This document shows positions 18,607-37,045 of a DNA stretch of 64,000 bases, one piece after another. The position numbers were made by a program, and so were the translations under genes. Each line of letters opens with the position of its first letter. Position 1 is the first letter of the stretch. Origin of the DNA: Longimicrobiales bacterium (GTDB lineage: Bacteria; Gemmatimonadota; Gemmatimonadetes; Longimicrobiales; Gaopeijiaceae). The notes beneath the pieces are model-generated. The model did not search any database, was not told the DNA's origin, and saw only the letters and a list, made by a program, of their open reading frames with translations. The stretch is from contig CBDFMQ010000002.1 in the NCBI GenBank assembly GCA_965249725.1, positions 1,504,001 through 1,568,000 of the forward strand, written 5' to 3'.

Positions 18607-18631
18607 GTGGGATGCAAATGGGATGCAAAGC
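18607..18631 (+). repeat. Arm-type integrase-binding repeat (GGGATGCAAA x2)
   Basis: 24/25 identical to 40861-40885. Confidence 0.7.
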
Positions 18632-18741: not shown

Positions 18742-19467
18742 CTACTCGATCACCGTGCGAAGCTGGTCACGAACCGCTTCGAAGCTCACACGTAGCACAA
18801 CAAGTTGGTTTAGGGCGAACTTCGCGTAATAGCGGCGAGTCTCAACGAGATTGATGGCGTCGAGGTCGCGAGGAAGTGTCGCGTGGTCGACAGGGATCGC
18901 GACGGCCTCCTCGTTGAATACTGAGCCGCGCGACACCACAGTATTGATGCGCCATTCGAAGGTGTCATGGAGGTCGACGTAGCGAGCGAGGCCCGGTGTG
19001 AGCGCCTCCAGGACGAAGGACCGCGCGGCTTGTTCGTCCTCTTGGTAGTCCCCGAGCGCGGCTGGCCAGTCGGCCAAGCGACTCTGAAGAGCCTGGCTTC
19101 GTATCAAGTCGAGGCTGCCTGAAGCGATGAGGGCGTCGAGCGTGCCTCGCTGCGGGTCCGCAGTTGGCGTGAGGAATAGGGACGCTAGCGCCGAAATACT
19201 CACTGTCGCGTCGCTCGTTGCTGCACCACGAAGTTGCTCAAGGATGGCATCAGCCCCCGAGACTACCTCGGCGTGCCGCTGTTCGACTCGGTCCAGCTCA
19301 ACCTCGGCTCCGTTAAACTCGACGAGAAGCGCACGGAGCACTTCGTCTTCCTCTTTGGCTCGCTGCTGACCGCCCCACCAAGCCTCCAAGGCGAACGCCA
19401 TCAGAATGCTGACCACGATCACCACGCCTTCCACGAAGACGCGCAGCCAAGGGACCTGACGGTTCAA
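18742..19467 (-). CDS. N-terminal TM-anchored helical protein (DUF6090-like)
   Basis: EGVVIVVSILMAF..W and LIASGSLDLIRS; paralog of the cassette genes at 29093-29797 and 26825-27481. Confidence 0.65.
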   Translation of the reverse strand: MNRQVPWLRVFVEGVVIVVSILMAFALEAWWGGQQRAKEEDEVLRALLVEFNGAEVELDRVEQRHAEVVSGADAILEQLRGAATSDATVSISALASLFLTPTADPQRGTLDALIASGSLDLIRSQALQSRLADWPAALGDYQEDEQAARSFVLEALTPGLARYVDLHDTFEWRINTVVSRGSVFNEEAVAIPVDHATLPRDLDAINLVETRRYYAKFALNQLVVLRVSFEAVRDQLRTVIE

Positions 19468-22115
19468 TTCGGCACCAGGCGCTTCAACTCCTCGAAGAAG
19501 TTCACGATTATCTGGACAGGAATTATCGGGACACGGTCGACCTCGGTTTCCTCAGTGGTAGGCCCCATCACTGCCACGAACGATTCACCGTTCGGGTGAA
19601 TATCCCAGTCGTGTCTACCCAGAGCATCGGCCATCCACTCCGCCTCGAATAGTACGTTGAGCGAACCCACCGACAACGTCTTGTCGACAGTGACGGCTGC
19701 TCGGATGACCCGACTACCATCGCGGAAGTAGATCGCCGACCCGTCGGGTGCCCAAAGAGGTTGGGTGCCTCCGTCTGACGAGATGACCTGTTGCCCATCG
19801 GCCTCGGGGAACGAGCGGACGTATACCTCCGGGATGCCTGACTCGTCGGACACATAGGCCAGCCAACGTCCGTCCGGTGATAGTGTCCCCGACGTTTCGT
19901 TCCAGTTAGCCCTGAGGTAATCAGAGAAGACGGCGCTGCCGGCGTCCTGCGTCACGAGCATCATGTCGCGCCCTCTGTCGGGCGTTGTCACCTCCACAAG
20001 CAGTAATTTGCGGTCTAGGGAGAGTGCCAACGGGAAATCGTCACCGTCCCTTTCGTAAAGGACCTCCTCCTCCTCCGAGGCGTCCGCCAGTCTGCGTACT
20101 CCGTCATAATGGGTGACCCCAACATAGCCGGAATAGTAAACGTAGCGGCCATCTCGTGACCACCACGGCGACTGGTAGTTGTTCGCATTGGTGAGGAAAT
20201 CGATAGCACCCGTGACTCGGTCGTAGACCCCGATCTGGCGGCCGCTCTCGTAGGGGATGCGTCGGCCATCAGGTGGTGAGAAACGGGGATGGTTGAAGCT
20301 TCTAAGGAACGGGAGCGGAGACTCAGAACCATCGAAGGCTACGATCGCAAGAGCACGGTCTTGAGCACCCACCGCGGGAAGACCTACAACAGCGGTGCCA
20401 GTCTCGGAAACGCTGAACTGGGTTGCGCCCCCGTTGAAGACCAACACCTCAGGCAGCACGATTGAGGGCGCGCCCGTAACCCGGTGCGTCGCTAGGTCGA
20501 AGGGGACCGCCATCAACGACTGACTGCTGTGTCCATATACGACATGCCCGGTAGGGACGTACCTAGGGTTACTCCCAACGATCCCTAGGTCAGTTACCGC
20601 GCCGGACCCGATATCGACCAACATCAGGCGCCTGGTGTCGATATCGCCCGGTCCTTGGAAGAGAATGGCCCTTCCATCGGGTAGAAGGTACGGGCGAATG
20701 GCGCCCTGAGAGATGTCCTCACTCTCGAGCACGAGGGTAGGCTCACCGCCCGCGACTGCAATCCGATAGATGCCGTGGCCTCGCGAGAACACGAGCATGT
20801 CCTCGACGCCCCAATGCGGCTCTGTTCCCGTGGCCACAGACACCATCCGATCGCCAGACAACCCCACCCTTCTTATTTCCTCGGGTTCGACGACGAATGC
20901 CAACCATTCGCCATCTGGGGAAAACGTGGGCTGGGCGGCGCGTTCCGTGTTGGGGACTTCGGTAAATCCAACCTCGTTACCCAACCGCATAAACAGCCGA
21001 CTCATGCCGTCCTGGTGACTTGCCAACACGATTCGTGAGCCATCCGGGGAGATCGCTAGCCGCCGGTCGGAACCGACGTCAGCCGCGAGTCGAAACTCCG
21101 AGAGCGGGAAACGTAGTGTGGGGGCCGCGGTGTTCAGCGCAGGAATCGTAGGTGGCCTTAGCCAGCCCCAGGTTGCCGCGAGCGAAAGGAGGACGGTCAG
21201 GGTCGCCAAGCCGACCGCCAGCCGGTTCCAAGGTCCTGGGGCGGCACCCGCTACTCCGGCGACAGCCTCCCCATACCGGAAGTGCTCATCCCCGAGCGCC
21301 CTCGCGAACTCCTGCGCCGACGTGAACCGATCCGCCGGTAGCTTCTCCAGCGCCTTCCGGAGTGCCGCGTCCACATTCACCGGCACAGCCGCTCGCTCTT
21401 CACGGGCCGATACCGGCTTGCCCTGGATGATCTTTCCGAGGATCGCCTGTGCGTTACTCCCTGTGTATGGCGGCTCTCCGACCAGCATCTCGTATAGGAC
21501 CGACCCAAGTGCGTAGATGTCCGTTGATGGGCCTACGATCTGGTCTCCTGTGGCCTGTTCGGGACTCATATAGTGCGGTGTGCCGAGGCTCAGACCCGTC
21601 TCGGTCAGTCTCCCGCCACCCGCTGCGCTTACGGCGAGTGCGATCCCGAAGTCGGCTACGAGAGGACGACCCCGGCTGAGTAGGATGTTCGCGGGCTTGA
21701 TGTCCCGGTGGATGACGCCCTGTTCGTGGGCGGCTTGAAGGGCGTCGGCTATCTCCGTCGCGATCTTAACCGCCTCGTCCACGGGAAGCTGGCTTTCGCG
21801 CTCAAGGCGGTCGCCGAGGGTCTCTCCCTCGACATACGGCATGACGTAGTAGAGGAAGCCGTCAGCTTCACCGGAGTCATGGAGCGGGAGGATGTGGGGA
21901 TGCTGGAGATTCGCAGTCGTCTTGATTTCGGCCAGGAAGCGTTCGGCTCCGACTACCGCTGCCAGTTCCGGTTTCAAGACCTTCAGCGCGACCTTGCGTT
22001 CGTGCTTGAGGTCGTCAGCCAGGTAGACCGTGGCCATGCCGCCTTCGCCCAACTCACGCTCGATGGTGTAGCGGCCTTCAAGGGCAGCGTTCAGCCTGGC
22101 AACGGGATCGGACAT
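19464..22115 (-). CDS. Hanks-type Ser/Thr protein kinase with TM helix and TolB/PD40-like beta-propeller
   Basis: LGEGGMATVY, VALK, HRDIKPAN, DFG, GTPHYMSPE; SPDG repeats. Confidence 0.9.
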   Translation of the reverse strand: MSDPVARLNAALEGRYTIERELGEGGMATVYLADDLKHERKVALKVLKPELAAVVGAERFLAEIKTTANLQHPHILPLHDSGEADGFLYYVMPYVEGETLGDRLERESQLPVDEAVKIATEIADALQAAHEQGVIHRDIKPANILLSRGRPLVADFGIALAVSAAGGGRLTETGLSLGTPHYMSPEQATGDQIVGPSTDIYALGSVLYEMLVGEPPYTGSNAQAILGKIIQGKPVSAREERAAVPVNVDAALRKALEKLPADRFTSAQEFARALGDEHFRYGEAVAGVAGAAPGPWNRLAVGLATLTVLLSLAATWGWLRPPTIPALNTAAPTLRFPLSEFRLAADVGSDRRLAISPDGSRIVLASHQDGMSRLFMRLGNEVGFTEVPNTERAAQPTFSPDGEWLAFVVEPEEIRRVGLSGDRMVSVATGTEPHWGVEDMLVFSRGHGIYRIAVAGGEPTLVLESEDISQGAIRPYLLPDGRAILFQGPGDIDTRRLMLVDIGSGAVTDLGIVGSNPRYVPTGHVVYGHSSQSLMAVPFDLATHRVTGAPSIVLPEVLVFNGGATQFSVSETGTAVVGLPAVGAQDRALAIVAFDGSESPLPFLRSFNHPRFSPPDGRRIPYESGRQIGVYDRVTGAIDFLTNANNYQSPWWSRDGRYVYYSGYVGVTHYDGVRRLADASEEEEVLYERDGDDFPLALSLDRKLLLVEVTTPDRGRDMMLVTQDAGSAVFSDYLRANWNETSGTLSPDGRWLAYVSDESGIPEVYVRSFPEADGQQVISSDGGTQPLWAPDGSAIYFRDGSRVIRAAVTVDKTLSVGSLNVLFEAEWMADALGRHDWDIHPNGESFVAVMGPTTEETEVDRVPIIPVQIIVNFFEELKRLVPN

Positions 22116-24740
22116 CAGTTCCCAACCCGCTCCTTCAACTCCTCGAAGAAGTTGAGGACGAGGATGAGTTGTTGCTTTTCGGCGGACCTCACCGCAAGGG
22201 TTGGTTGAACGACGATGATCCTGTCGCCGTCGGGATGGAGGTCCCAGTGCTCGGGACTGAAGTCTCCGGCAAGAACCACCTCACGGGATCGCACAGTGAA
22301 CGTAGGTTCAGCATCTACCCGTGCGGCGTACAGCGTGTCGATCTGTTCGTCCTCATGCCGCCAGTAGTAGAGGGTGGTGCCGTCAGGCGACCAGCGCGGG
22401 AACTCGCCGCCGCCCTGGGAGACCAACACCGGCTGCCGGGGGTCTGGGAAGCTGCGTACGTAGACTTCGTCGGTACCGGTCTCGTCGGACTGGTACGCAG
22501 CCCAGCCACCAGCAGGTGAGACAACGACATCGTCGAGATCCGCGTCCGACTCCAGATACGCCGTCGGATTCTCACCACCCGATGGAGCGAACGTCCCTAG
22601 GGTCGATGGGTTCGGGCTACTCTCGAACACCGCGAGGTCATCCTCGGGCCAGCTTCGGATTAACTGGATGCCGGGGAGGGTCAGAATCTCCTCTTCGGGT
22701 GCGTCGTCGTTGACGGTCCGCACGAAGAGATCCCACTCGTCGGTTCCCTCCCGCAGGGAAGTGAACGCGATACGACTCCCATCCGGTGACCATACGGGGA
22801 ACCGATTGTCACCCTCGAACGTGAGTTGCCTTGGTGTGGTCTGCGATTCCACATCGTAGGCGTAGATCTGGCGGTCTCCCGGACGACCACTGTGGTAAGC
22901 TATAGAGCTGCCATTCGGCGACCATCGTGGACCGCCGAACACCTGTGGGGTGAGCGCCAGGACGAGAGCCTCCTCGTTGCCCTCTAGATCGACGACAACG
23001 AGCTTGTGCGTCCCAGCCATCGGAGTTAGACCCTACCACGTAGAGGAGCGTCCCGTCGGCTGCTAGCCGCATGTCCGCCCTGTTCGTGGTAACACGCACC
23101 CCGTCGAAGAGTGGAATCGCCCCACCCGTGATCGCGAGCCCACTGAGATCGAAGGGCAAGGCGAAGAGTGCCCCGTCGGTTCGGAGGTAGACCAGGTGGC
23201 CCGTGGTCGTGTACCAAGCTCTGATGACTTGCTCCAGGATGACTTCCGACGACAGAGCCCGCAGGTCCACGACGTGAAGCTCGTTGTTGGTGGGGACCAC
23301 AAACGCACCCCGAGCCTTGGGAAGGCCGTGCACCCAATAAAGCCCAGGACCTGGCCCAAAGACCACGAGCGGTTCCCCACCGTCTTCAGGAATTCGCACG
23401 ACCCTCCCACCGGTTGTCTCGTAGAGGATCGTCCCATCATCGAGCCAAGCCAGTCCAACCCGATTAGAGCCCCCCTCGGTGTCCTCGGCCAGCCTCAACG
23501 CAGACCCCCCCACGAGGGGCCGCTTGTAGAGGTCCGTTCCTATGGCATACGCGATCCATTGGCCGCTGGGGGAGTACACAACGTCCCGACCCCGTTCGGT
23601 TCCAGGAATCGGAGTAATCTCGGTCGAGCCCCGCATCTTGAGCGCCAATTGATCGCCGACTGGGAGGATCATACTCGATCCATCGGGGGCAACCGCCGCG
23701 TAACGTCCGAACTCTGTCCCCAGACCGGCCCAGCCTTCCGTGCTCAGAACCTGGCGCATTGCGGGCTGAGGTGGCGCGGGGCGGAGGAGCGACCAGCCGA
23801 AACCGGACGCGAACACGAGCGCCAGTGCACCCAATCCCATCGACAGCGGGTTCCAAAGCCCCCGGCCAACCGTCACGCCCCCCGCAGCTTCGTCCCCGTG
23901 CCGGAACCCCTGATCAGCCAGCGCCTTCGCAAACTCCTGAGCCCCCGTGAACCGATCCGCAGGCAGTTTCTCTAGCGCCTTCCGAATCGCGGCGTCCACG
24001 TTGGCTGGAACCGACTTTCTGATCGCCGTTGCCGACACCGGCAGGCCCTGAATGATCTTGCCCAACACGGCCTGAGCGGTATTGCCGGGATAGGGGGGCT
24101 CGCCCACCAGCATCTCATAGAGAACACACGCCGGAGCGAACGTGTCACTCGCGGGTCCAACCGCTTGGTCCCCGGTCGCCTGTTCGGGGGACATATAGAA
24201 AGGAGTACCCAGCGAGAGCCCGGTCTCGGTGAGGCGACCGCCTCCACCGACGCTGACCGCCAGCGCGATTCCGAAGTCGGCAACGAGCGGTTCTCCACGG
24301 CTCAGAAGGATGTTGGCGGGCTTGATGTCGCGGTGGACCACACCATGCTCGTGAGCCGTCTGAAGAGCGTTCGCCACGGCAGTGGCAATGCCGAGCGCCT
24401 CATCGACGGGTAGCTGTCTCTCACGGTCGATCCGCTCCCCTAGCGTCTCACCCTCGATGTAGGGCATGACGTAGTAGAGGAAGCCGTCTGCTTCCCCCGA
24501 GTCATGGAGCGGCAGGATGTGGGGGTGCTGAAGATTGGCGGTGGTCTTGATTTCGGCCAGGAAGCGTTCGGCTCCGACGACCGCAGCCAACTCGGGCTTC
24601 AAGACCTTGAGGGCGACTTTACGCTCGTGCTTCAGGTCGTCAGCGAGGTACACCGTCGCCATGCCCCCCTCGCCCAACTCTCGCTCAATGGTGTAGCGGC
24701 CTTGGAGGGCTGCGTTCAGGCGGGAGACGGGATCAGACAT
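22115..24740 (-). pseudogene. Second Ser/Thr kinase-propeller paralog, frameshifted near 23020-23035
   Basis: Kinase ORF 22809-24776 and propeller ORF 22115-23020 together are colinear with the 883-aa paralog; both end NFFEELK. Confidence 0.85.
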
Positions 24741-24753
24741 GATGATTGGCGAC

Positions 24754-25215
24754 TCAGTCTTCTTCTTCGGAGCCATCCCCTCGATACGACTTCAGGTTGC
24801 CCCCAGCGTCAGCGATCCAGCCCCATCGACCTCCGTCATTCAGGAGCACATCCGTCCATCGCGACCACACTAACGTCGCTCCACCGTCAGCCAGCGGGAC
24901 CGCGTTTTGCAGCATCAGGTGGACCACTGCTACGTCGCCGATGACGATGATTGCGAGAGGTCGCGCCGTGATCAAAGTGGCGTTGCTCCAATAAGGATTA
25001 GAAGCCCTCATCGCATCGAGATCCACAGGCAGGGGATCAGCCGCATTCCAGCCTACATACGCCTCGTGGAAGCACTGTGCCACTCGATCTGCCGGACTCA
25101 TTGCAGAACACTCCAACTCGAACTCCCAGACCTCCATTTGCTCGGCGTTCCAGTCTTGAGCAGACGCTGGTGCAGTGATAACGGTGGCCGCGGCGATGAG
25201 TATCAGAGTGCGCAT
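24754..25215 (-). CDS. Secreted NTF2/DUF4440-like protein
   Basis: Signal peptide; GDVAVVH...RWTDVL..W. Confidence 0.6.
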   Translation of the reverse strand: MRTLILIAAATVITAPASAQDWNAEQMEVWEFELECSAMSPADRVAQCFHEAYVGWNAADPLPVDLDAMRASNPYWSNATLITARPLAIIVIGDVAVVHLMLQNAVPLADGGATLVWSRWTDVLLNDGGRWGWIADAGGNLKSYRGDGSEEED

Positions 25216-25601
25216 GATCGTTCCTCTGGGAAGTGAGGCAACTTGCTGCTGGTCTGGATGTCCTCCATCAGCGGAGGATCAAACCGTGACCAACATCCTA
25301 TCCGCAGGTCGGGAAGCGCAAGCAGAACCGTGTCCAGGGGCTGTTAACGGCGTTCTGCATGTATGCCGATTTTGCCTTTGGCATCCGGGCCAGGGTCCGG
25401 GTGTTCTGGTGGCCTAGGGGGGCGTTAACGGGGCACGGTTGCACAGACCAAACGGTGGGCGGTTCGTGGTGGCACGGTGCCGGAGCCTTGGGCCAGTGGT
25501 CGGTTCATGCCTGACTGCGCTCAGGCTCATGTGCACTCAAGGGGCAGGCGACGAGCAACGTAGCGCAGAGCACTACGATCATTCTCGCACTCACGTATTC
25601 C

Positions 25602-26010
25602 TTAGCGCCGGAACACGTAGGCCACGCCCTCGCGGATGACGGTCAGCACGTTTCCTGTGAGGGACGCGCTTTCTTGAGAGCCGTCTGAGGAGTTGAAGAC
25701 GATGGCCGAGGCGTTCTGCACGAACGCGCCCGTGTCGGTCTCTGTTTCAGTCGTGACTGCGCCGTTTTCCGTAACGCGGAAAGTAAACGACCTTGAGAAT
25801 GTCCGGTCGCTGTTCAGGCGGATGGAGCCGGAGAGGAACTCCAAGGTGGTCCCAGGAATCGCGAACAGCGTCCACGGGAGGGTCTCCCCGGCGATGCTCT
25901 GCAACGTGTACGTTCCGGCGATGGTCTCGGGTGCGAACGGGTCGCCCCCACTTCCGTCGTCGCCGCCACACGCAGCCAAGACCGTAGGGGCGTGTATTCG
26001 CGTTCTGAGC
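25602..26010 (-). CDS. Lipocalin-like lipoprotein; start unclear or decayed
   Basis: LAAC lipobox; IAGTYTLQS; beta-rich. Confidence 0.55.
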
Positions 26011-26086
26011 GTCTTCGGTGTTTATTCGGCATCCCGGGTAAGGTAGAAGGCTCTCGTGGCTTAGAACGCTGTTTACCGATCCGCCA

Positions 26087-26105
26087 CAGCAATCGCTTGT
26101 TGCGT
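26087..26105 (-). repeat. Degenerate half attC ending cassette 5
   Basis: cagcaatcgcttgtt matches the L''/spacer side of the other attC sites; the R'' box and the remainder are lost. Confidence 0.55.
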
Positions 26106-26110
26106 GCGGT

Positions 26111-26683
26111 TCAGCCCCCATACGCGGACGTCGAGCTCAGAACGAGCATGTAGACCAGGATCGGTGTGAAAAGAAGTGTGATGCCGATCTGAATCCGTCG
26201 GTCGCGAGCCACGATCATCCCAAGCATTAAGGCGATCTCGACGTAGATGACGAGACTCATCCGAGCCCACAGTGAGGCTCCAAACCACACGACATTCCCA
26301 ACCGTCCCCAAGACGTGGTAGGCGATGATCGCCGCGAGCGCCCATCGACCGTTTTCTCTGAAGTACATGCGAAGATCGACACCCGAGACTGGCACCTCCT
26401 CGGGCAGGATCAGGTTCGCAGCTACATAGAGGCAAGCGGGCAGGGCGAGCAGGAGGGAGAAGTCGAGAATTGTCCACTCTGGCACCAGACGGTCCAGCTC
26501 GAAAATGCCCCACCAGTACTGCATCTGGAGGAGCAGTAGGAAGACCGCCCAGATCAGCGGGAGCCAGTCCCAGTCAACCAAACGTCGATCACGGAACAGC
26601 CTAACAAACGCTTGGAGAACCTGCGCAAGCGCCAAACCAAGGACCAGCGAGGCGGCGACGGAAATGAACTCGAATGGCGACAT
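26111..26683 (-). CDS. Integron cassette 5: multi-pass membrane protein
   Basis: Six hydrophobic segments; lies between attC 26706-26805 and the attC remnant. Confidence 0.7.
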   Translation of the reverse strand: MSPFEFISVAASLVLGLALAQVLQAFVRLFRDRRLVDWDWLPLIWAVFLLLLQMQYWWGIFELDRLVPEWTILDFSLLLALPACLYVAANLILPEEVPVSGVDLRMYFRENGRWALAAIIAYHVLGTVGNVVWFGASLWARMSLVIYVEIALMLGMIVARDRRIQIGITLLFTPILVYMLVLSSTSAYGG

Positions 26684-26705
26684 GGTACCGATCTGCACAC
26701 GCGCG

Positions 26706-26805
26706 TTCTAACGGATTGCGATTCTGCTGCGCGACTAAGATGTGGATCTGAAGCGATGCACGCGAGCTAGATGTCTACCGCGACTGCAGCCATCGCTTGT
26801 TAGAA
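26706..26805 (-). repeat. Integron attC site (100 bp)
   Basis: Minus strand: TTCTAAC-aagcg-ATGGCTGC...GCAGAAT-cgcaatcc-GTTAGAA. Confidence 0.9.
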
Positions 26806-26824
26806 CGCGCACCCAGAGAGATTG

Positions 26825-27481
26825 CTAGTGCCGGAGTTCGTTCAACACGCCTGCTAGGCGATCGAGCCAGGCGCCAAGAATACCGACCGTGCCGTTGTTG
26901 TTGATGATGCACCCCGCTGTCACCAATCCGGCGATGTTCGGGATCTCCCGAAGGCGTTCGCCGAACTCCTCCGCGGGGAAGAGGAGTATGGCGTCACTCT
27001 GGTTCACCGCCCCAGCCAACGGTTGTCGATTCAAGTAGCGCGCGTCCTGTAGTCTTGCGAGCGTGGCGTCGACATAGCCGCGATAGTCGAAGAGTAACTG
27101 TCGGACTGTTGGGGATAAGAGATCCAGGGCACCTGTGTTCAGGATTTCCTGGAAAGTGGCGCCCCCGGCATGGGGTAGTGGTGCGTGTCGGATGCATTGC
27201 TCGTAAAGCTCACCCATCGGCGCCGCGCTACCCGTTTGGAGCGAAGCAAGGAGAGCCTTTCCGGCTTCCCTCGCCTCAAACGCGGTGCGCTGCTCTGAGT
27301 CCAGTCGAACGGAATCGGCGACGAACTCCCCGATTAGGCGGTTACGGTAGTCAGCCCCTTCGGCGCGGTCCAGACGAGCCTGATTCCAGCGGTCGGCGGC
27401 CAACGCCGCAAGCACTCCGACCAAGATCACAGCGAACTCCCCGGCGAGTCGGCCGATTCTTTCTGATCTGGAACTCGTCAT
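26825..27481 (-). CDS. Integron cassette 4: DUF6090-like TM-anchored protein
   Basis: GEFAVILVGVLAALAADRW, ILNTGALDLL; between attC sites. Confidence 0.7.
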   Translation of the reverse strand: MTSSRSERIGRLAGEFAVILVGVLAALAADRWNQARLDRAEGADYRNRLIGEFVADSVRLDSEQRTAFEAREAGKALLASLQTGSAAPMGELYEQCIRHAPLPHAGGATFQEILNTGALDLLSPTVRQLLFDYRGYVDATLARLQDARYLNRQPLAGAVNQSDAILLFPAEEFGERLREIPNIAGLVTAGCIINNNGTVGILGAWLDRLAGVLNELRH

Positions 27482-27533
27482 GGTTGTAGAACCCCTACAC
27501 GGATCGTTCAGCGGACCGGCTGAGGATTGCGCG

Positions 27534-27633
27534 TTCTAACGGATTGCGATTCTGCTGCGCGACCAAGATGCCGACCGCAAGCGAAGCGCGCGAGCTAGAT
27601 GCCTACCGCGACTGCAGCAATCGCTTGTTATGT
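27534..27633 (-). repeat. Integron attC site (100 bp)
   Basis: ACATAAC-aagcg-ATTGCTGC...GCAGAAT-cgcaatcc-GTTAGAA. Confidence 0.9.
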
Positions 27634-27643
27634 AGCCCATGAT

Positions 27644-28033
27644 TTATCGAATTGGACGAACATGCCGTTCGATCCATTCCTGGAACTCCTCCCGGGTTCT
27701 CTGGCCTGCGGCCACCGCGAGAATCTCTGCTTCGGCTTCGTCGACTTCCGCGGTGATTTCGAAGCCATTCAGCATGAGAACTGCCTCCGCTGCAGCGTGG
27801 CCAATTCTCTTGTTCCCGTCGATGAAGGGGTGATTCATGATCAGGGAGAAGCCCAAAGCGGCTGCCTTGGAAGAAAGGCTCGGGTACAGATCTTCGCCGC
27901 CGAACGTCTGCCGGGATTGGCCAAGTGCGGACTCCAGCATACCGAGATCCCGCAAGCCGTCAGAGCCCCCAGATTCTGCGATGATGAGACCGTGAAGCTT
28001 GAGGACCTCAGCCAAACTGAGGTAGCGCGTCAC
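27644..28033 (-). CDS. Doc (death-on-curing)/Fic family toxin, cassette 3
   Basis: HPFIDGNKRIG motif; GLRDLGMLESAL. Confidence 0.9.
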   Translation of the reverse strand: MTRYLSLAEVLKLHGLIIAESGGSDGLRDLGMLESALGQSRQTFGGEDLYPSLSSKAAALGFSLIMNHPFIDGNKRIGHAAAEAVLMLNGFEITAEVDEAEAEILAVAAGQRTREEFQEWIERHVRPIR

Positions 28034-28224
28034 CCGAGGCGCTCGTAGAGCTCCCGGTTCTTCTCCAGAATCTTGGACGCCACACGGTCGAAGTCCGCCT
28101 CCGGCTGGGCGACAAGTTCGCGGACAGCCGCCTCGGCTAGAGACTCGGCCGGAACGTTGAGTCGTCCCGCGATCTCAGCGAGTCGCCGCTGCTGGGCTTC
28201 GGAAAGTTCTATGGCGAGTTTCAT
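28030..28224 (-). CDS. Putative antitoxin (RHH-like), cassette 3
   Basis: 64 aa ending ILEKNRELYERLG; 4-bp overlap with the toxin; GGAGG RBS. Confidence 0.8.
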   Translation of the reverse strand: MKLAIELSEAQQRRLAEIAGRLNVPAESLAEAAVRELVAQPEADFDRVASKILEKNRELYERLG

Positions 28225-28282
28225 GATTCCTCCCTTCCCCACAAAGCTACCCAGGTTCGACAGGTACGACCAATGGAGGGCT

Positions 28283-28382
28283 ACATAACGGATTGCGATT
28301 CTGCTGCGCGACCAAGATGTGGACCGCAAGCGAAGCGCGCGAGCCGAATGTCTACCGCGACTGCAGCAATCGCTTGTTAGGC
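28283..28382 (-). repeat. Integron attC site (100 bp)
   Basis: GCCTAAC-aagcg-ATTGCTGC...GCAGAAT-cgcaatcc-GTTATGT. Confidence 0.9.
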
Positions 28383-28414
28383 TGCTGGCCCAGGTGTTTG
28401 GGGCTAGTCAAAGC

Positions 28415-28906
28415 CTAGGGCTGGAGTTGTGCTAGGAAGGTCGCGGAATCGAAGAGGATCCACTCCTCGGCAATCTTTCCGCCCTCGATGCGAAGAATGA
28501 GCATTTCACTGACGTGGACCGTCCGCCCGGTCGCCCCAATTCCCGCGAAGTCTCCGGTGTGCTGCAGCGTGATGTCTACCAATAGGGCGATTCGGTCGCC
28601 TTCCGAAACCGATTCCCGTATGACATGGCGTATGTCGGAGAACCCCGTGAAGAATGGCAGTAGGCTCTCACGGTAGGCTGCGAATTCTATCACCTCCGAC
28701 CCCCCGGCCTCGTGGCTGACGAAGCTAGCGGTCAACCATTGGTCTACCACCTCAAGAGATGGATCGGCATCAAACTCCTCGAAGTATCGCTCGATTAGAG
28801 CCCGGTGTTCCTCCGCATCGCTGTGGGTCGTCTCGTCGGTCTGCGGTTGGCAGGCGGAGAGAATGGCGGCAAGAACAAGGGTCGGACCGACGAAGCCTCG
28901 GGGCAT
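28415..28906 (-). CDS. Integron cassette 2: SnoaL-like ester cyclase lipoprotein
   Basis: LSAC lipobox; EGDRIA...HTGDFAGIGATGR...GKIAEEW. Confidence 0.85.
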   Translation of the reverse strand: MPRGFVGPTLVLAAILSACQPQTDETTHSDAEEHRALIERYFEEFDADPSLEVVDQWLTASFVSHEAGGSEVIEFAAYRESLLPFFTGFSDIRHVIRESVSEGDRIALLVDITLQHTGDFAGIGATGRTVHVSEMLILRIEGGKIAEEWILFDSATFLAQLQP

Positions 28907-28953
28907 TTGGAATAGTCCCTCCGTAAGAGGTACATCACTTGTGCTCTGCAGCA

Positions 28954-29053
28954 GCCTAACGGACTGCGATTCTGCTGCGCGTCTAAGATGGTGACCGCAA
29001 GCGAAGCGCGCGAGCTAGCTGGCTACCGCGACCGCAGCAATCGCTTGTTAGAG
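28954..29053 (-). repeat. Integron attC site (100 bp)
   Basis: CTCTAAC-aagcg-ATTGCTGC...GCAGAAT-cgcagtcc-GTTAGGC. Confidence 0.9.
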
Positions 29054-29092
29054 CGCACCCCGCGCATTATGCAGACACGAGGCGCTCGTTGA

Positions 29093-29797
29093 TCAAGCGA
29101 ACGATGCGTTCGATGAGCCATTGCGTCGCCTGGAGTCGCCCCCCCCTTGTTCGAGTCGCATCCAACGCTCGGCAAGCATGTCCTCGAAGCTTGGACTGAG
29201 CAGCACGGCGTCCCACTCGGCTCCATGAGGTGAGGGTCCGAACGGAAGGGACCGAACGGATCCATCACGGAGGGTTCCGAAGGAACCGCGCCGGAGCCGG
29301 TCTACCCGTGGGATCCGGCCCTCCAGGAATGGTTGCATCCGTTGCTCCCAGGTGGCCCAAGCCCGCGCGTCGGCAGCCCGAAGCTGGTCCAGAAAGGCGG
29401 GGTAGCTCGCGAGGGCCAGCCGAAGGCTATCCGACTGAATCAGCTGTGTCTCGCCCGAGGAGATCAGATCATCAAGGACGGCTCGCGGGGGATCGAACTC
29501 GATCTGCTGCGACAAGCCGGAAGCCCACAGATACAACGAGTCCAGCGGTGCTCGCTCTGATCCTTGAGCCTGGTTGATGAGCGCCTCGGCCGAGTGGACG
29601 GCGTGCCCCCGCATTGGAGTGGCAGTCTGCTGAAGGGCAACTGTGAACTCCTGACGTAGGGACATCAAGTAGCTTCGCTCCCGATCAAGAGCCTGCGAGC
29701 CATCCCACCAAGCCTCGATACCAAACGCGAGGAGAATCGAGGCAACGATGACGATCCCCTCAACAGCGATTCGGCCCCAAGGGATGTTCTCGTTCAT
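29093..29797 (-). CDS. Integron cassette 1: DUF6090-like protein; possible G8 frameshift near the 3' end
   Basis: WGRIAVEGIVIVASILLAFGIEAWW; LISSGETQLIQS. Confidence 0.7.
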   Translation of the reverse strand: MNENIPWGRIAVEGIVIVASILLAFGIEAWWDGSQALDRERSYLMSLRQEFTVALQQTATPMRGHAVHSAEALINQAQGSERAPLDSLYLWASGLSQQIEFDPPRAVLDDLISSGETQLIQSDSLRLALASYPAFLDQLRAADARAWATWEQRMQPFLEGRIPRVDRLRRGSFGTLRDGSVRSLPFGPSPHGAEWDAVLLSPSFEDMLAERWMRLEQGGGDSRRRNGSSNASFA

Positions 29798-29819
29798 GCT
29801 ATCGGCCCGTGCGTGTGCG

Positions 29820-29855
29820 CTCTAACTCCTATTGTACTGCACTATTTCGCCCCCA
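29820..29855 (-). other. Probable attI (array entry site)
   Basis: Core GTTAGAG complementary to the R'' of cassette 1, preceded by non-attC sequence (gaaatagtgcagtacaatagga). Confidence 0.55.
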
Positions 29856-29860
29856 TCATC

Positions 29861-30558
29861 GATGGTGTCCCGCTGACAGTTGAAGGTGGTGGCTCCGGAG
29901 AGTCTCCTTGTTAGCCTGCCTTTCTCATTTCGGCAACCGGTTCATGGTCGTCGAGGTGGGCTTTGAGCATCCAGAGCTGGTCGAAGCCGATGATCCTCCG
30001 GTAGCTCTTCTCGGTCTCCACGAACGAGGCCGCGGCCCATCTGAGGGCCATCGCTCCGTTCTTCCAGTTGGTCACCCTGTGGGTCTTCTGTCTTACGCCC
30101 GAGTGGGTGCTGTCGATCAGGTTGGTCGAGCCCAGGCACTTCCTCAGCCGCGGCGGGAGGCCGAGCCGGTTGATCGTGAACATCTCGCTGAGGCCTTCGC
30201 GTAGGCTGGCCGAGGCCGAGGGGTGGTCGCGCTCGAGCCATCGGGCGAGCTGCTCGAGCTTCTGCTCGCCCTGCTTCGCGTCCAGCTTCATCGCCGCCCG
30301 GAACGCCGCCTTCACCTGAGGATGCTGATCCTTCGGCAGATGACCCAGCACGTTGCGGAGCTTGTGGTTGCGGCAGCGCTGGATGGGGTGACGTTGGCCG
30401 AACACCTTCTCGATCGCCTTCCTGAGCGCTTTCGAGCCGTCGATCACGAACAGCCGCCGCCTGCCCGGGTCCAGGCCGCGCTCGACCAGATCCTCTAGGA
30501 GCGCGCTGGTCACCTCGGCGTTCTCACTCGCTCCTTCCCTCACGCCCAGCACGTGCTT
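29861..30558 (-). mobile_element. Truncated IS256-family element (3' half of transposase plus one terminal IR)
   Basis: VLGVREGASEN...LFVIDGSKAL...QRCRNHKLRN...STNLIDS; terminus GATGGTGTCCCG..AGTTGAA; N-terminal half missing. Confidence 0.85.
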
Positions 30559-30559
30559 G

Positions 30560-30812
30560 GATAAGCTCGGGGGAAGGAAGCACGCCCGACCAGGTGGTGG
30601 TGGTTGAGGTCTTCTTCGCACCGGATCGGGTTCGCCGGCGTGAGTCTGTGAGCGTCGATACGTACTATCGCATCCAATACGCACTCCGGCCCCGTGCTGG
30701 CTGCGATACACTTGCTGTTCGTTTCACACCTCCCAACGGGATCACCCATGTAGAGAAGCTCGGCAAATGTGAAGATCACGTCGTGGACTACGTCATCCCC
30801 CCAGGCGAATAG
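30560..30812 (+). pseudogene. 5'-truncated paralog of the 30823-31596 gene
   Basis: VVVEVFFAPDRV...CDTLAVRF...LGKCEDHVVDYVIPPGE aligns with the neighbour's C-terminus. Confidence 0.65.
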
Positions 30813-30822
30813 GGGAGGAACC

Positions 30823-31596
30823 ATGTCTGCGACGAGTAAGACTCTGAGCCGTTTGCGGGTTATGCGTCTGTTCCTCGTTGTCATGCCGTCGCTCTGGGCG
30901 TGCAGCACGTGGGAGCCCATCTCTATCGAAACTCTCGGGCCTGAGCCTCACCCGTCTTCTGTCAGAGTCTACAGAGGTCCGCTGTACGAATCCCTCCACG
31001 ATGTGCATGTCTTCGCCGACACGCTTCTGGTCGGCGTCACGCGCACCGGAACGACAGTTTGGGTCGAGAGCATATCCCTCGATCAAGTCACGAACATCGA
31101 GCAATCCAAGGGTGTTGATCTCGGCAAGACCGTCCTTGCCGTTGGCGGCGGCGCGGTGATCGCAGCGGCGGCGGTGACCGTATATCCGGCAGTGGCGGTG
31201 GTCTGCGACGACGACCCCTTCGACTGTGACCGAGCCCCACCCCCTCGGAAGAAGAGTACTGCCGAAACCGTGTGGGACCTCGCTCGCGCAGACTGGGCAC
31301 CCCGTCGGGACACGACCCCACCACCACCGCCTCTGTTCGTGGGCGGCTGGGTCAGCGCGCCCGGTGATAACCCAGATCACAGGGTGATGGTCGAACTCTT
31401 CGACGCACCGGATCGAGTCCTCCACCGTGAGCGTGTTCGAGTCAACGGATCGTATCGTATCAACTACCCTCGCGGCTTGATGCATTGCGAGACCCTGGCT
31501 GTGCGCTTCACGACGCCCGACGGACTCACCCACCTCGGTGAGCTTGGCAGTTGTGGTCAGCATGTCGTTGATCTCGACATCCTCCCCGGCGAGTAG
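30823..31596 (+). CDS. Hypothetical lipoprotein
   Basis: GGAGG RBS, LWAC lipobox, Pro-rich linker, Cys-containing C-terminal domain. Confidence 0.6.
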   Translation: MSATSKTLSRLRVMRLFLVVMPSLWACSTWEPISIETLGPEPHPSSVRVYRGPLYESLHDVHVFADTLLVGVTRTGTTVWVESISLDQVTNIEQSKGVDLGKTVLAVGGGAVIAAAAVTVYPAVAVVCDDDPFDCDRAPPPRKKSTAETVWDLARADWAPRRDTTPPPPPLFVGGWVSAPGDNPDHRVMVELFDAPDRVLHRERVRVNGSYRINYPRGLMHCETLAVRFTTPDGLTHLGELGSCGQHVVDLDILPGE

Positions 31597-31729
31597 AGGG
31601 AGACCATGTCTACCACCAGCAACGGCTTCCTGAGCCAGTTCGGTCTCCTGACGATTGTAGCGTCTCCGCTGATCTCCTTGTGGTGGCTGGAGGCGTGCGT
31701 CGACCCTGGTACGACTTCGTATCGCTGCG

Positions 31730-32127
31730 ACTAAGCACAGCACCCCTTCTCCGGGACCAGCACCCCGCCCGCTCTCCACGCCAGCGACCGTGGTCATCGC
31801 TGGGGGTTCCCCGCTCGCATCCACCAGCACATGCCCAACCGGCTGCCTGAGCAACTCAAGCCTTAGATCCTGCAGAAACAGCATACGTGCATCATCAGCC
31901 ATCCCTTCCAGCACCTGCACATGTTCGGGTGACACCCGCACCGTTACCTGGAGGAAGAGGTGGTTGTAGTCGGCCTTCTTGAGAGCCACCAGCGTAGAGA
32001 ACGTCTGCCCCGTGACAGAGAGCGCCCACTCGTACGGAACGTCTTCCTGGAGGTCGAGTTCCTCGTACGAGAGTTCGAGACCCGTCAGCCAATCTTGAAC
32101 GGTCTCTTTATCGATCTTGCCCGCCAT
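31730..32127 (-). pseudogene. DUF2299-like protein, 3' end apparently disrupted
   Basis: VQDWL...VRVSPEH...FLQDLRLELL; the ORF then runs antisense through the neighbouring gene. Confidence 0.4.
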
Positions 32128-32757
32128 GTACCCCTTGGGTTGTCATTCTTGGCTGTTGGAACAAGGTATCGACTGGGGGGAGCCAAAGGATAAGGCCCGC
32201 CATCCCAATGCCGCAACCATCCCAAAATGGTCCCATCCTGACATTCTCCCGCCGGTCCGTCCTACCCAGATTATCGGTCATGGGTATGTACGACATGATG
32301 ATGGACGGCGCGGTGGGCTGGAGGCCACGGTACGACAGCCTCACGCCCACCCAAGAGCCCATCACCGGACCGCGGCTCACTGTCCAGTGCACCTATCCCG
32401 GTACGAGCCTAGCCCCAACCGTGATCACATTCGGACTCTCGCCGCGCTACGGCTATTCGACTGCTCGGGAGGCACATGAGCTATTTCCTCAGATTAGTAC
32501 GCGAGCAGAAGGAATTCGAGGTCGATACAGATCGGGCAGGCAGGCTTCCGATCCCGTTCGTTAGCGGGACCGTCAAGAGCGTGCATTCTTCGATTTCCCC
32601 CTGAGGGCCCTTCGACCCCATCTCGGTTTCGCCATCTTTTGGACATGCGCCGTGCTTTCTGGTTGTTCGTCCTGCTCGTTTGCTACTATCTCTTCGTCGG
32701 GTGATGGCCGCGTGTGATCGCCATGTGCGGCACCGCCTCTCAACATCGTTCTCAAAC

Positions 32758-33111
32758 TCAAGCACCCCGCCGTCTCTGAAGAAAATCCCGTACATCGTTC
32801 TCCGGTAAGCTCGGGCCCCATCCGTTCGTCCGCTTAACAGGCAGATCACCCCGACGGATACGGGGTCGCCCTCTCTCACCAGCGTTCGGGATCGTGCCCG
32901 CGGCCACCATCTTGCGCAGATGGTCTATCGAGTAGTTGGACTCGAGTGCGGCCTCCACGAGTGTCAGTGTCTCGTCTTGGTCGTCCCTCAACGCCTCGTC
33001 CACCTCAACGGCCAATCGGCGAATCAGCTTGCCAGTGACCTCATGCCCACACCGTTCCACTGTCTCGGCTTCGTTACGCCACCGGGTGAGTAGTTCCTGC
33101 ATCGCGTTCAT
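32758..33111 (-). CDS. Excisionase-like HTH protein
   Basis: LTLVEAALESNYSIDHLRKMVAAGTIPNAG...RIRRGDL (MerR/Xis-type winged HTH). Confidence 0.65.
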   Translation of the reverse strand: MNAMQELLTRWRNEAETVERCGHEVTGKLIRRLAVEVDEALRDDQDETLTLVEAALESNYSIDHLRKMVAAGTIPNAGERGRPRIRRGDLPVKRTNGWGPSLPENDVRDFLQRRRGA

Positions 33112-33271: not shown

Positions 33272-34915
33272 TTAGAAGGGGTACCTTCGCTGGAGGCGTT
33301 GTTGGCGTGCATGGCGCTCAAATAGGCGCTCCAAGCCGTAGTCCGTATTCCGCTCCCGCTTCTTCAATTTCTCGGGTCTCTTGAAAGCGGGGCGAGAGCG
33401 AACCCAGTTCCAGAAAACCGCGGCGTCGCCCTTGTCTGGGCTGCGCCCCAAACGCTCACGGATCTTTTCCTTCGGCTCGACAAGGATCTTGCCGTTGCGG
33501 GTAAGCCAGGTGGGGGTCGTGAGGTCGTCGAAGAGCTCTCGATCGTCGGGAAGGGCGATGTGACCACGCTGAAGATCCGTGCGTAGCTTCCAGTACATCT
33601 GAGCACGCAGGTTCGCGAACTGCTCGTCAGAGTACACAGCTCTTCCCGTCCTCGCCCGTGCCTCACTGTCCAGACCGCCGGTGGGTTTCGTCCCCGCGTT
33701 GAGGCTTCGCACGTAAGAGCCCATCTGCTTCAGGGCTCCGACTGCCCCAGCTCCTACGCCGACACTATCCACCCCCACCCGCCTTGGGTCGATGCCGTCG
33801 GCCTGGATCAGCGCTCCTACATCGATACCGAGTTGAACTGGATCGGGACACGCGAAGGAGCGGACCTCCAACAAGCAGGCTCCCTTCCCTTGGGCGATCG
33901 CCGCCTTGTCGCCCGCCTCGCTGGCCGCCACATCCACACCAAGAGCCATCACCCCCTGACGGAATGTTGGATCTGCATAGCGTGTGGCAGCCTCTTCACA
34001 CCACTCGAGATTGATGAGTGCGTCCTCGGCTTCTGCCGGAGAGATACCACGTATCCGAGAGCGGTAAAGGCGGCTGTCCTCGCCATATTTCCGCGCCCTC
34101 TTGTGAACCGATTCAAGTGAGACCGCACCAGGTACGATGTCCGCGTCGTCACAAACAACGTTCGGGTGGTCGAGGCCGGATATGCGCACATGCTCAACGT
34201 CTGGAGACGTGCAGAAGCGGTGTAGCTCGTCGTGCTGGCTGTCCGGGTTCCCTACGCAGATGCGGAGGTTGTGAGGGCCTGTGGACGTGTTCTCTAACGC
34301 CGTCATGACCGCCGGCGCGAGACCCGGCATCTCCTCAACGATGAGGAGCATGTGCTCAGCGTGGGCGCCCTGAGCTCGTGTAGCCGACTGCTCTCCAGAC
34401 CCAACACCGACAGCGTATCCCCACGCGCCCCACTGGTCTGATTTCGGAATCATGCGTAACCGGAGATCGGTCAGTTCAGCCTGTGGGAAGTGCGGCTTGA
34501 ACGCCGGCCACAGCTTCCGCATCTCGGCCCACATGAAGAGCCGAAGCTGATCCTCCTTTGGGGCATACGAGAACACGCGAGCATCGGGCCAGCAGGCGAC
34601 GAACCAGAAGGTCAGACACGCGAGCATAAAGCTCTTGCCGGCACCTGTCGCGGACTCGACACCTACGTCTCCGCCCAGGGCGAGTGCGTCGGCCATCCGC
34701 ATCAGCGGCTCGACAGTGCCGTCCCACTTGTGGTCGCGGTATCCCGTGTTGATCGACCACCGCAACGTGCGTTCATCGACGCCTAGGACATCGACGATCC
34801 AGCCGATTGGCTTCTGCTGGTAATCGCTGTGAACTGTGGTGGCATTGCCTTCCTTCTTGAGGCGTATCGCCCGCAGCACCGTCCTGGCCTGACCAGCATC
34901 GCGGATCATTGCCAC
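33272..34915 (-). CDS. terL: Phage terminase large subunit
   Basis: Walker A SATGAGKS, Walker B LLIVEE, coupling motif VGNP, nuclease LGVDVA, VGVDSVGVG, RSPDKGDA. Confidence 0.88.
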   Translation of the reverse strand: MAMIRDAGQARTVLRAIRLKKEGNATTVHSDYQQKPIGWIVDVLGVDERTLRWSINTGYRDHKWDGTVEPLMRMADALALGGDVGVESATGAGKSFMLACLTFWFVACWPDARVFSYAPKEDQLRLFMWAEMRKLWPAFKPHFPQAELTDLRLRMIPKSDQWGAWGYAVGVGSGEQSATRAQGAHAEHMLLIVEEMPGLAPAVMTALENTSTGPHNLRICVGNPDSQHDELHRFCTSPDVEHVRISGLDHPNVVCDDADIVPGAVSLESVHKRARKYGEDSRLYRSRIRGISPAEAEDALINLEWCEEAATRYADPTFRQGVMALGVDVAASEAGDKAAIAQGKGACLLEVRSFACPDPVQLGIDVGALIQADGIDPRRVGVDSVGVGAGAVGALKQMGSYVRSLNAGTKPTGGLDSEARARTGRAVYSDEQFANLRAQMYWKLRTDLQRGHIALPDDRELFDDLTTPTWLTRNGKILVEPKEKIRERLGRSPDKGDAAVFWNWVRSRPAFKRPEKLKKRERNTDYGLERLFERHARQQRLQRRYPF

Positions 34916-35400
34916 ACCTGCTGCTTCAGAGCGTCCATCAACTCGTCATCACCAAGCGCCTCGAGTTCCTTCATCTTCGAGACAGGCAGAGACGCCAACC
35001 GTTCCAAGACATCGACCTTCAACTCAAGGCGATCCTTGAACATCCCGAGATGTTGGCCGAGGTGACGCAGTGCCTGGTTCGCCACAGCACCGTCGTATCG
35101 ATACTCGCCTGTGGGAGTGCCCTGACGGTCCGTCACGGGCTTCGCCTGCATCGCCCGCCCAACGTTCTCCACGAGCTTGGTAATCACCCAGTCAGCCGTG
35201 ATTTCTGTTCGCTCGACGCGCTCCTGTAACGCCTTATCAATTTGGGCGGCTACCTTAGCGTTCCTTAACAGCCTGTGACCCGCGACCTCGGCCCCGTTCG
35301 GGCTGTACCCGGCGCGACGTGCTGCACCCGTAGCGTTCAAGTCCACCAGGTACTCGTGGACGAACGCCTGCTGCTTCGGGGTGAGTCTGGGGGTGTTCAC
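34906..35400 (-). CDS. terS: Phage terminase small subunit (Terminase_2-like)
   Basis: LTPKQQAFVHEYLVDLNATGAARRAGYS...ALRHLGQHLGMF. Confidence 0.92.
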   Translation of the reverse strand: MNTPRLTPKQQAFVHEYLVDLNATGAARRAGYSPNGAEVAGHRLLRNAKVAAQIDKALQERVERTEITADWVITKLVENVGRAMQAKPVTDRQGTPTGEYRYDGAVANQALRHLGQHLGMFKDRLELKVDVLERLASLPVSKMKELEALGDDELMDALKQQVWQ

Positions 35401-35730: not shown

Positions 35731-36134
35731 TTGTGGGCTTCCTCAGGTTTGAGCGACTCCAGATTGTCCCTAAGGATCGCCTCGAGGACTGTTCTCAGGT
35801 CTTCGTAACCCGGCTGTGCCGTGATTCTGAGAAGCATCATCTGGGTGTCACTGTTCGTGATGCATAGATGATTCCAACAGAGCTTCTCCAGGTCCACTAG
35901 AGCCGCTAAGTGCAGTGGCCGTTGAAGGACCTCGTGCACATGCGGATGGTCCCGGACGAGCTGGTCGAGGATCTTGCCGTGCTTGGCCACCTGCTCGATG
36001 GCCGTGTACGCCACATCGTGATCCCAGGAAAGGCGGTCACAGATGTCCAGCACGGTCCGAGCGTGGGCGCGTTTGGAGACGGCCACCGCAAGTATCTCCA
36101 ACTCCAGCTTGTTCTTGTCCACGAATACCGTCAT
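35727..36134 (-). CDS. Hypothetical protein
   Basis: 4-bp overlaps with both neighbours. Confidence 0.55.
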   Translation of the reverse strand: MTVFVDKNKLELEILAVAVSKRAHARTVLDICDRLSWDHDVAYTAIEQVAKHGKILDQLVRDHPHVHEVLQRPLHLAALVDLEKLCWNHLCITNSDTQMMLLRITAQPGYEDLRTVLEAILRDNLESLKPEEAHK

Positions 36135-37045
36135 GGCCAGAGTGCTTCTTCGTCGGGTAAAGCCTGACGGATACGGTGGGTGCGGTAGTCGATCTCGATT
36201 GGGATGTCTCCCTCCCTACCGTGTCGGTTCTTAGCCACCAGCAGCCACGTTCGCGTGATGTGCTCATCGTCCTCACGCCTAGTGTGGTCGAGCAGCCAGC
36301 CGAAGTGGGCTTGCTTGGAGAGCAGCGGGCAGCTGTCGAGGCTCTCGATGGTTGGGCGCACCTTGGGTGCGGAGCTCTGCCGATTGAACTGGCTCGCCAC
36401 CACCACGAGGGAGCCGGTGGATTCCATGAAGCTCACGATGCCCCGCACAGCGTCTTTCAGGGCACTGAAGTGGCGGGTATCGCTCTCGAGACTCAGGAGC
36501 TGGAAATAGTCGATCAGGAAGACACGAACCCCGGAGCTCGAATTCATCGTCGCCATCCACCCGAGTGCGTCATCGACAGCCGTAAGAGACGCGGCCATCT
36601 GGTTGGTCAGCAGACGACCCCACGATCCTTCTCGGGTCTTCTGCTCGATCGTCTCACGGACGTGCTCGGCTTCCATTGAGTCGAAGTGACGGCCCGGAGA
36701 GAGATGCTTTGCGGGCACGTTGGTCAGGATCGACCAGATCGCGGGCGTCGCCTCCGCCGCGTCGATCTCGAGGCTCACGAGCCCAACGTTGACGGCCTGT
36801 TGGATGAAGTCGGCGGCGAGGTTCCAGAGCAATCGGGTCTTGTTGTTTCCGGTCTTCCCGCCCACAACGGCGAGCTTCCCGAGTGGAATCGCGCCCGGCG
36901 TCACGTGATATACCCACTCGCCCAACGACGGCACGCCCGTGCTGAGCACGTAGTCCTCGCCATGGCTCTTCCCCATTTCGGCCAACGCCTGCTGCTCTGC
37001 GGCCCAGACGCGGCTGACGACATCTACCGTGACCAGGTCGTTCAC
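36131..37045 (-). CDS. DnaB-like (SF4) helicase, C-terminal domain only
   Basis: GGKTGNNKT, VSLE, LIDYFQLL, ASQFNR, AKNRHG. Confidence 0.8.
   Translation of the reverse strand: MNDLVTVDVVSRVWAAEQQALAEMGKSHGEDYVLSTGVPSLGEWVYHVTPGAIPLGKLAVVGGKTGNNKTRLLWNLAADFIQQAVNVGLVSLEIDAAEATPAIWSILTNVPAKHLSPGRHFDSMEAEHVRETIEQKTREGSWGRLLTNQMAASLTAVDDALGWMATMNSSSGVRVFLIDYFQLLSLESDTRHFSALKDAVRGIVSFMESTGSLVVVASQFNRQSSAPKVRPTIESLDSCPLLSKQAHFGWLLDHTRREDDEHITRTWLLVAKNRHGREGDIPIEIDYRTHRIRQALPDEEALWP

Follow-up and report, generated by a model that had tools for sequence, protein, structure and literature searches.

An integron cassette array behind an attI stump in a satellite-like tRNA-Val island of a Longimicrobiales bacterium

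The 64,000-nucleotide stretch of a Longimicrobiales genome analysed here (the window: GenBank assembly GCA_965249725.1, contig CBDFMQ010000002.1, positions 1,504,001 to 1,568,000) contains a genuine integron cassette array of five cassettes without an integrase of its own. The array is located in a 22.5-kb island (18434-40996), which is bounded by a 44-bp tRNA-Val repeat and resembles a phage-inducible chromosomal island (PICI), and the 35 bp preceding cassette 1 are the stump of a true attI site. It seems rather probable that the cassettes were inserted one by one at this attI by an integron integrase (IntI) acting in trans, and that array and island are by now decaying passengers rather than a functional vehicle for transduction. 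A preliminary description of the same DNA had proposed that a block of host-lineage cassettes was captured by a potentially phage-packaged element. The array is real and this interpretation is upheld in part, with the case for transduction weakened by decay in this species.

The Cassette Array and Its attC Sites

Four full attC sites of 100 bp with canonical pairing lie on the minus strand behind cassette 4 (26706-26805), cassette 3 (27534-27633), cassette 2 (28283-28382) and cassette 1 (28954-29053), at the positions where they had been described, and the eroded 5' half of a fifth site (about 26087-26102, minus strand) ends cassette 5. All four display the canonical register R''-5 nt-ATT[G]CTGC...variable loop...GCAGAAT-8 nt-R', which in the site at 26706 reads ATGGCTGC. 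The wording "near-identical" was generous, since pairwise identity without the core boxes is 85-93%. The spacer between L' and R' measures 8 nt, or 9 nt in some copies of this attC family; the classical spacer is shorter (5-6 nt). Across 29 sites from this genome, its relatives and metagenome contigs, 95.9% of cells pair in a bottom-strand stem with two unpaired bases, a count that is favoured by deriving the structure from the same sequences. Slid controls of these sites reach only 24-54%, and two-sided changes are found at 7 of the 23 stem pairs, a result that none of 500 shuffles gave. Single sites have ordinary folding energies (z -1.5 to +0.8), and no Rfam model matches them.

The cassette starts GTTAGAGCGCAC, GTTAGGCTGCTG, GTTATGTAGCCC and GTTAGAACGCGC are complementary to the R'' of their own cassette over 12, 12, 12 and 13 bp, so that cassettes 1 to 4 do bear the reported signature of inserted cassette circles; the GTT core at the start of cassette 5 is not complementary to its own R''. 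Among the joints listed, which come from contigs only, none would form a cassette circle. Every cassette gene is on the minus strand, in agreement with the reported co-orientation. The IntI family model TIGR02249 has seven matches in the genome and none in the window, and the nearest intI (C3:1028977-1029906) is about 500 kb from the array. With more than the minimum of two attC sites and no intI nearby, the array qualifies as an attC-site cluster that has no integrase (CALIN), and not as a complete integron, in which an intI adjoins the attI.

The attC sites belong to the host lineage, as had been claimed. A search for further copies recovered 14 clusters of the same attC family in the genome, at gene ends and in arrays rather than scattered, and one of them lies behind a full-length, co-oriented and intact intI (IntI-A) at tRNA-Pro. 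IntI-A passes the TIGR02249 family cut-off and keeps the R, H-x-x-R, H and Y residues, which we take to be catalytic, as well as the integron insertion. The window sites are as close to sites outside (up to 98%, as for the site at 27534 and those at C3:824751 and C2:304115) as to one another, and the family is present in 7 of 40 relatives. Moreover, 4, 6, 7, 10 and 10 of the 14 clusters lie within 4, 6, 10, 15 and 20 kb of a tRNA gene, compared to 1.1-3.8 expected over those distances. Beside two of the arrays of this genome, an RNase R gene is found in two pieces (C3:823149-824084 and C3:1017872-1019314).

A Truncated attI at the Head of the Array

The stump (29826-29860, minus strand) comprises the last 35 bp of a platform of about 155 bp, here termed attI-B, with the crossover between G and TT at 29826. 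A stretch of 40 bases spanning the beginning of cassette 1 agrees at 39 positions with C2:303565-303604, where it precedes a different cassette. Allowing for up to two mismatches, a 19-nt attI-B pattern occurs in 5 of 313 family genomes, four times in a cassette context (a control pattern in 2), while an exact search of the set genome_contigs with the 19-mer gave no match. A gapped pattern matches 26 metagenome contigs, in which the conserved upstream sequence of about 155 bp is followed by 25 different downstream sequences; 25 of the 26 continue with GTTA, GTT itself being part of the search pattern. The next attC was located at 7 loci, and at 5 of these its R'' pairs, over 12-13 nt, with the bases that directly follow attI-B. 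In metagenome locus L125, a co-oriented integrase, IntI-B (41% identical to IntI-A), ends 181 bp upstream of attI-B, and contig C7 of genome G327 encodes a full intI-attI-array unit with a co-oriented IntI-B just upstream and a long array following. Because the left arm is conserved up to the crossover, the cassette to its right variable and IntI-B adjacent at these two loci, the stump is identified as an attI.

Most copies of attI-B are solo. An intI lies upstream in only 1 of 15 contigs with at least 400 bp of upstream sequence, and the four copies in this genome are without one. No intI-B gene was found in this genome, the best match being IntI-A. Platforms outside the window are located in this genome (C2:303451-303602, C3:4068-4219 and C3:751285-751436), G002 (C8:1175430-1175511), G327 (C7:1424177-1424319) and the loci L101-L126. 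L113 retains the last 19 codons of intI-B only, many copies have a sharp 5' limit just before a 12-bp hairpin, and in L114 and L120 the platform starts directly behind an attC; the platform may be cut loose or moved by IntI itself. A broken intI in G001 has no recognizable attI-B behind it. In the viral database IMG/VR, the attI pattern gave four AT-rich matches without platform or attC, which were taken as chance.

Two side observations concern these sites. A tyrosine recombinase and an IS91-type (Y2) transposase are encoded by a 2.5-kb element of which the loci examined contain seven near-identical copies (G011 loci L083, L085-L088 and L090). At least three of these are placed precisely at the GTT of an attI site, and in L125 the attI is followed by a related end. 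A tRNA-Ser(TGA) locus with an attI-B remnant and first cassettes occurs twice and is partly identical (C3:3783-9650 and C3:750846-760175), which represents either a duplication or two strain versions in the assembly.

In the window, the attI platform is interrupted by the remnant of an insertion sequence (IS) of the IS256 family (29861-30558, minus strand), whose exact right end abuts the stump and whose left part is missing through a deletion evident at 30558. The IS end is defined from two other copies, one of which has an 8-bp target duplication in G001. It sits between two hexamers conserved in attI-B, TTGCGC and (C/G/T)ATGAT, which are spaced by 18 nt in 25 of 30 copies as parsed. TTGCGC-N18-(C/G/T)ATGAT is likely the cassette promoter, which would then have been lost in the window through the IS. 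A hybrid promoter formed from the IS end was considered and rejected, as no promoter-like site reaches the threshold in 25900-30100.

The Surrounding Island

As had been described, the array lies in a terminase-encoding island. It is located between the two copies of the 44-bp repeat and to the left of the terminase genes terS and terL. The proximal copy is part of tRNA-Val(TAC) (40954-41029, minus strand), and the distal copy (18434-18477, minus strand) matches the 3' half of that tRNA at 43 of 44 positions. Genome G001 represents the empty site, with the tRNA followed by sequence matching 18400-18433 and no island. The tandem repeat TGCATCCC near the distal end (18609-18627) is mirrored at 40863-40881, and both may serve as arm sites of the island integrase. 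This tyrosine integrase (39622-40833, plus strand; PF00589, phrog_1) has no match to TIGR02249 and is not an IntI. The right part of the island further holds a divergent open reading frame (ORF; 38514-39629, plus strand) without a family match, repressor-like by position only, and, on the minus strand, a replication module of an initiator-like protein and a DnaB-like helicase (36131-37827), terS (34906-35400; PF03592, phrog_51), terL with an open frame (33272-34909; phrog_2) and an excisionase-like helix-turn-helix (HTH) gene with a weak HTH_17 match (32758-33111; E 6e-4) and homologs in related islands.

An integrase in an att-bounded chromosomal island, a primase-replicase module and terS are features of PICIs that this island has. 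For a PICI regulator (alpA, merR or stl), the divergent ORF without a family match and the weak HTH_17 match are candidates. No match was obtained to a capsid-morphogenesis gene, which is optional in PICIs of the Staphylococcus aureus pathogenicity island type. From the set of capsid-forming PICIs (cfPICIs), i.e., terL with capsid, portal and head-tail genes, terL alone is present: the 28 ORFs scanned in the island region gave no match to a portal, capsid or tail family.

The cassettes encode a hydrophobic protein without a family match (cassette 5, 26111-26698), another protein without a family match (cassette 4, 26825-27481), a small upstream ORF followed by a Doc-like Fic toxin (cassette 3, 27644-28224; PF02661, phrog_577), a SnoaL-like protein (cassette 2, 28415-28906) and a member of a large unnamed family with 144 matches, frameshifted near its 3' end (cassette 1, 29093-29797). 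Cassette 3 is likely a bacterial toxin-antitoxin pair, the layout suggesting an antitoxin in the upstream ORF; a scan with defence models gave Fic-domain matches for the Doc-like protein and nothing else. To the left of the array, the cargo on the minus strand (18742-25979) comprises a paralog of the cassette 1 family, two Ser/Thr kinase-PD40 genes, a DUF4440 gene and a small ORF. Four short non-coding repeat families (25978-26065, 25256-25343, 19370-19507 and 18647-18700) flank the cargo genes and recur in many islands of this genome and its relatives.

A similar layout is repeated elsewhere. The C2 locus, which is island-like itself, has the same order of attI, cassettes, leader repeat, kinase and end repeat. 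The closest integrase (57%) belongs to a 19.9-kb tRNA-Arg island of G011, where no terminase was detected; it contains two attC remnants as well as a complete attI-B plus cassette, oriented as in the window. At tRNA-Asn of G062, the order is integrase, helicase, HTH gene, terS, two attC sites and kinase. In a tRNA-Arg element of the present genome, an attC half comes after terS; an 83-bp segment of this element recurs (86%) in the DNA immediately upstream of the C2 attI. Altogether, attC follows terS in 4 of 7 terS-bearing elements (the window, this tRNA-Arg element, G062 and, weakly, G086) and not in those of G245, G329 and G075. A second PICI-like element of this genome besides that in the window, at tRNA-Arg(TCT), is split into parts 750 kb apart (C3:76480-78800 and C3:831700-836165) and encodes a DnaB 85% identical to that of the window. 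An island at tRNA-Ala with the same integrase family is broken across two contigs (C2:302913-302953 and C3:83396-83829) and seems to duplicate the 5' half of the tRNA; tRNA-Thr (C3:1957757-1962397) presents a similar case. The tRNA-Ala islands of G011 and G001 contain no attC.

Origin of the Array

The resulting proposal is that a solo attI was present in the cargo slot of a PICI-like tRNA-Val island, that an IntI acting in trans, either the resident IntI-A or an IntI-B since lost, would have filled it cassette by cassette, and that an IS256 element would then have split the platform before a deletion removed its upstream part. Loading on site is suggested because a near-identical attI heads other cassettes elsewhere; together with the attC sites behind terS in four of seven elements, this 39-of-40 match in front of different cassettes marks the cassettes as cargo from the host pool, likely loaded in trans. 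Moreover, cassettes turn up where the host possesses them, a pattern more in keeping with filling from the host pool than with carriage over long distances.

Several observations weigh against this proposal. The slot might not be special at all, since attC clusters are tRNA-linked in general (6 of 14 within 6 kb, with 1.5 expected) and solo attI-B is also found beside core genes such as hisD. Recognition of attI-B by IntI-A is a putative step, and attI-A and attI-B have only part of the L box in common. The position of the IS256 end, exactly at the array head, would fit a moved block equally well. Finally, this assembly preserves an intact set of integrase, both att sites, arm repeats, replication genes, terS and terL, and the same genome contains a full head-and-tail prophage on C1, so that the island might still be mobile.

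A wider form of the proposal, which we regard as somewhat unlikely, holds that a whole family of PICI-like Longimicrobiales satellites keeps a bare attI pad behind its terminase genes, which the host IntI loads in trans and whose arrays are spread in helper particles. A slot specific to satellites is disfavoured by the occurrence of solo attI-B beside core genes and by a survey of related loci. Of the 14 top integrase loci surveyed, five ran off their contigs and only 2 of the 9 assessable ones carry attC, three of the negatives belonging to genomes that gave no match to this attC family. Among 20 further regions, four have an attC match, two of them weak, the wrong side possibly having been taken for some. 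The capsid-bearing relatives, found in genomes without this attC family, carry no attC.

Unlikely, too, is a move of stump and cassettes into the island as one block, taken from a chromosomal array by IS256. The exact right end of the IS at 29861, 35 bp from the crossover, and the identity to the C2 attI at 39 of 40 bases are what such a move would leave, and separation of an array from its intI by an IS is a published route to CALINs (PMC4889954). However, neither C2 nor the intI-linked array has a cassette in common with the window array, no IS copy is present at the far end of the block, and in related islands attI-B or attC is found, likewise oriented, with this IS absent. The capture of a block as put forward in the preliminary description is not supported, as it overlooked the attI stump, and the near-identical attI in front of other cassettes points to loading on site.

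Whether the island is an active satellite, which packages itself and the array in helper particles so that the array spreads by transduction, is doubtful; this is compatible with loading on site. The intact genes and att sites listed above speak for it, as does a complete siphoprophage in the same genome (C1:492000-533000, L200-L202), which has genes for terminase, portal, protease, capsid, tail, integrase and repressor and contains an IS3-type element. In G075, of another genus, an integrase C-terminus 96% identical to that of the island is followed by a 43-bp tRNA-Val half (C1:2670383-2670997, L151), which hints at a fairly recent spread of this island type. On the other hand, the island has no portal or capsid match, the one portal and one capsid match of this genome being in the C1 prophage, and the packaging suggested earlier is without direct evidence. 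The terminases belong to different families (phrog_9 in the prophage, phrog_2 in the island), and a close relative of the island terminase adjoins a P22-like portal in G004. A search of 313 family genomes gave no near-identical array; with two candidates scored per genome, the best reached 85% over 314 bp. In IMG/VR the attC pattern has no match, and neither attC nor attI-B is present in 21 viral and 9 genome loci with relatives of terL, the genome loci spanning about 4.6 kb. Contigs of three other studies join terL to an IS256 end at 34868, near the gene start.

Signs of decay are also found in the window itself, where cassette 1 and one kinase gene are frameshifted and the conserved hexamer pair is split by the IS. 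Short-read contigs match the window at the frameshift of cassette 1, and the one-base shift near 23017 that splits the kinase-PD40 gene (22115-24776) is absent from contigs of runs X1 and X8 from other studies. At the same tRNA, G002 has only an island arm, IS256, two attC halves and genes of cassette families. The island may have been mobile in the past; the case for present transfer of the array in this strain is weak.

It is distinctly improbable that the island once had a complete integron of intI-B, attI-B and cassettes, with intI-B disappearing through the same deletion as the left part of the IS. The deletion at 30558 is evident, intI-B is directly upstream of attI-B in L125 and G327, and L113 shows a remnant of it. 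However, the window contains no trace of an intI, the full attI-B sites of C2 and the G011 island have none either, and it is upstream in a single one of the 15 informative contigs.

A mis-join of the array into the island by the assembler is extremely improbable. Junctions within the reach of short reads are bridged by short-read contigs, whose runs may represent the source sample. These contigs cover 24800-25317, 25298-26730, 26706-27558, 28353-29012, 28986-29887 (entering the IS end) and 30529-33000 (leaving the IS break) without differences, and both neighbours of the array are island DNA. In favour of a mis-join, other islands of this genome are rearranged, and no short-read contig spans the 700-bp IS remnant. 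Unique DNA between about 24820 and 32083 is without cover in runs X1, X8 and X9 from three other studies, where contigs break off at 24818 (X8, X9) and resume at 32084 (in all three), on both sides with unmatched letters; this gap is not counted as proof that the array is absent, because no contig joins across it.

Comparison With Known Systems

CALINs are common, and their origin is debated between integrase loss, rearrangement and off-target insertion (PMC4889954; see also PMC9024848, PMC11389934, 10.1101/2022.09.11.507474 and 10.1101/2025.06.18.660453). Here, the attI of a CALIN is identifiable and traceable, and it is met again without its integrase at many loci, satellite-like islands among them; the filling of a solo attI in trans would provide a testable route to CALINs. 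Should such islands be packaged, cassette arrays would have satellites as carriers in addition to phages, and if a satellite family is indeed loaded in this way, the element would hitchhike on both phage and integron and could be a source of many scattered arrays. As the case for current transfer in this strain is weak, the locus is informative chiefly for its attI family and its recurring layout. In the literature, mostly open-access text without supplements, no report of attC cassette arrays in satellites or PICIs was found, and the word "integron" is absent from the main text of a PICI survey (PMC10085698).

The array resembles the CALINs of Cury et al. (2016; PMC4889954) in having at least two attC sites, no nearby intI, a small size, an IntI elsewhere in the replicon and an IS at its edge. 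It differs in its identifiable attI, traced to a second IntI lineage, and in its location in an att-bounded island. CALINs have also been described from phages, and the cryptic Shewanella prophage M16-3 holds one that has an attI of its own (Qi et al., 2023; PMC9892861). That array is likewise headed by an attI without an adjacent intI, is flanked by terminase and phage genes, and lies in a possibly inactive element; its authors left undecided whether the phage link arose before or after decay. In contrast, M16-3 is a 40-kb prophage with structural genes and a complete integron of its own, whereas the window element has neither virion genes nor intI, and its layout is repeated in related satellite-like islands.

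With PICIs (de Sousa et al., 2023; PMC10085698), the island shares a tRNA-targeting integrase, a replication module, terS, accessory genes behind terS and the lack of tail or lysis genes. Unlike them, it has terL, a marker of cfPICIs in that survey, without capsid or portal, no match to alpA, merR or stl, and an integron array as cargo. Gemmatimonadota are listed among the phyla with integrons (PMC8618304). In both host-lineage integrons, that of IntI-A in this genome and that of IntI-B in G327 and L125, intI is oriented towards attI and cassettes, as in the co-oriented ("inverted") chromosomal integrons of Treponema (PMC3607928). Those belong to another phylum, the relatives here being Longimicrobiales and Gemmatimonadetes, and the Longimicrobiales integrons are set apart by two IntI lineages that share one attC family, with one attI often standing solo.

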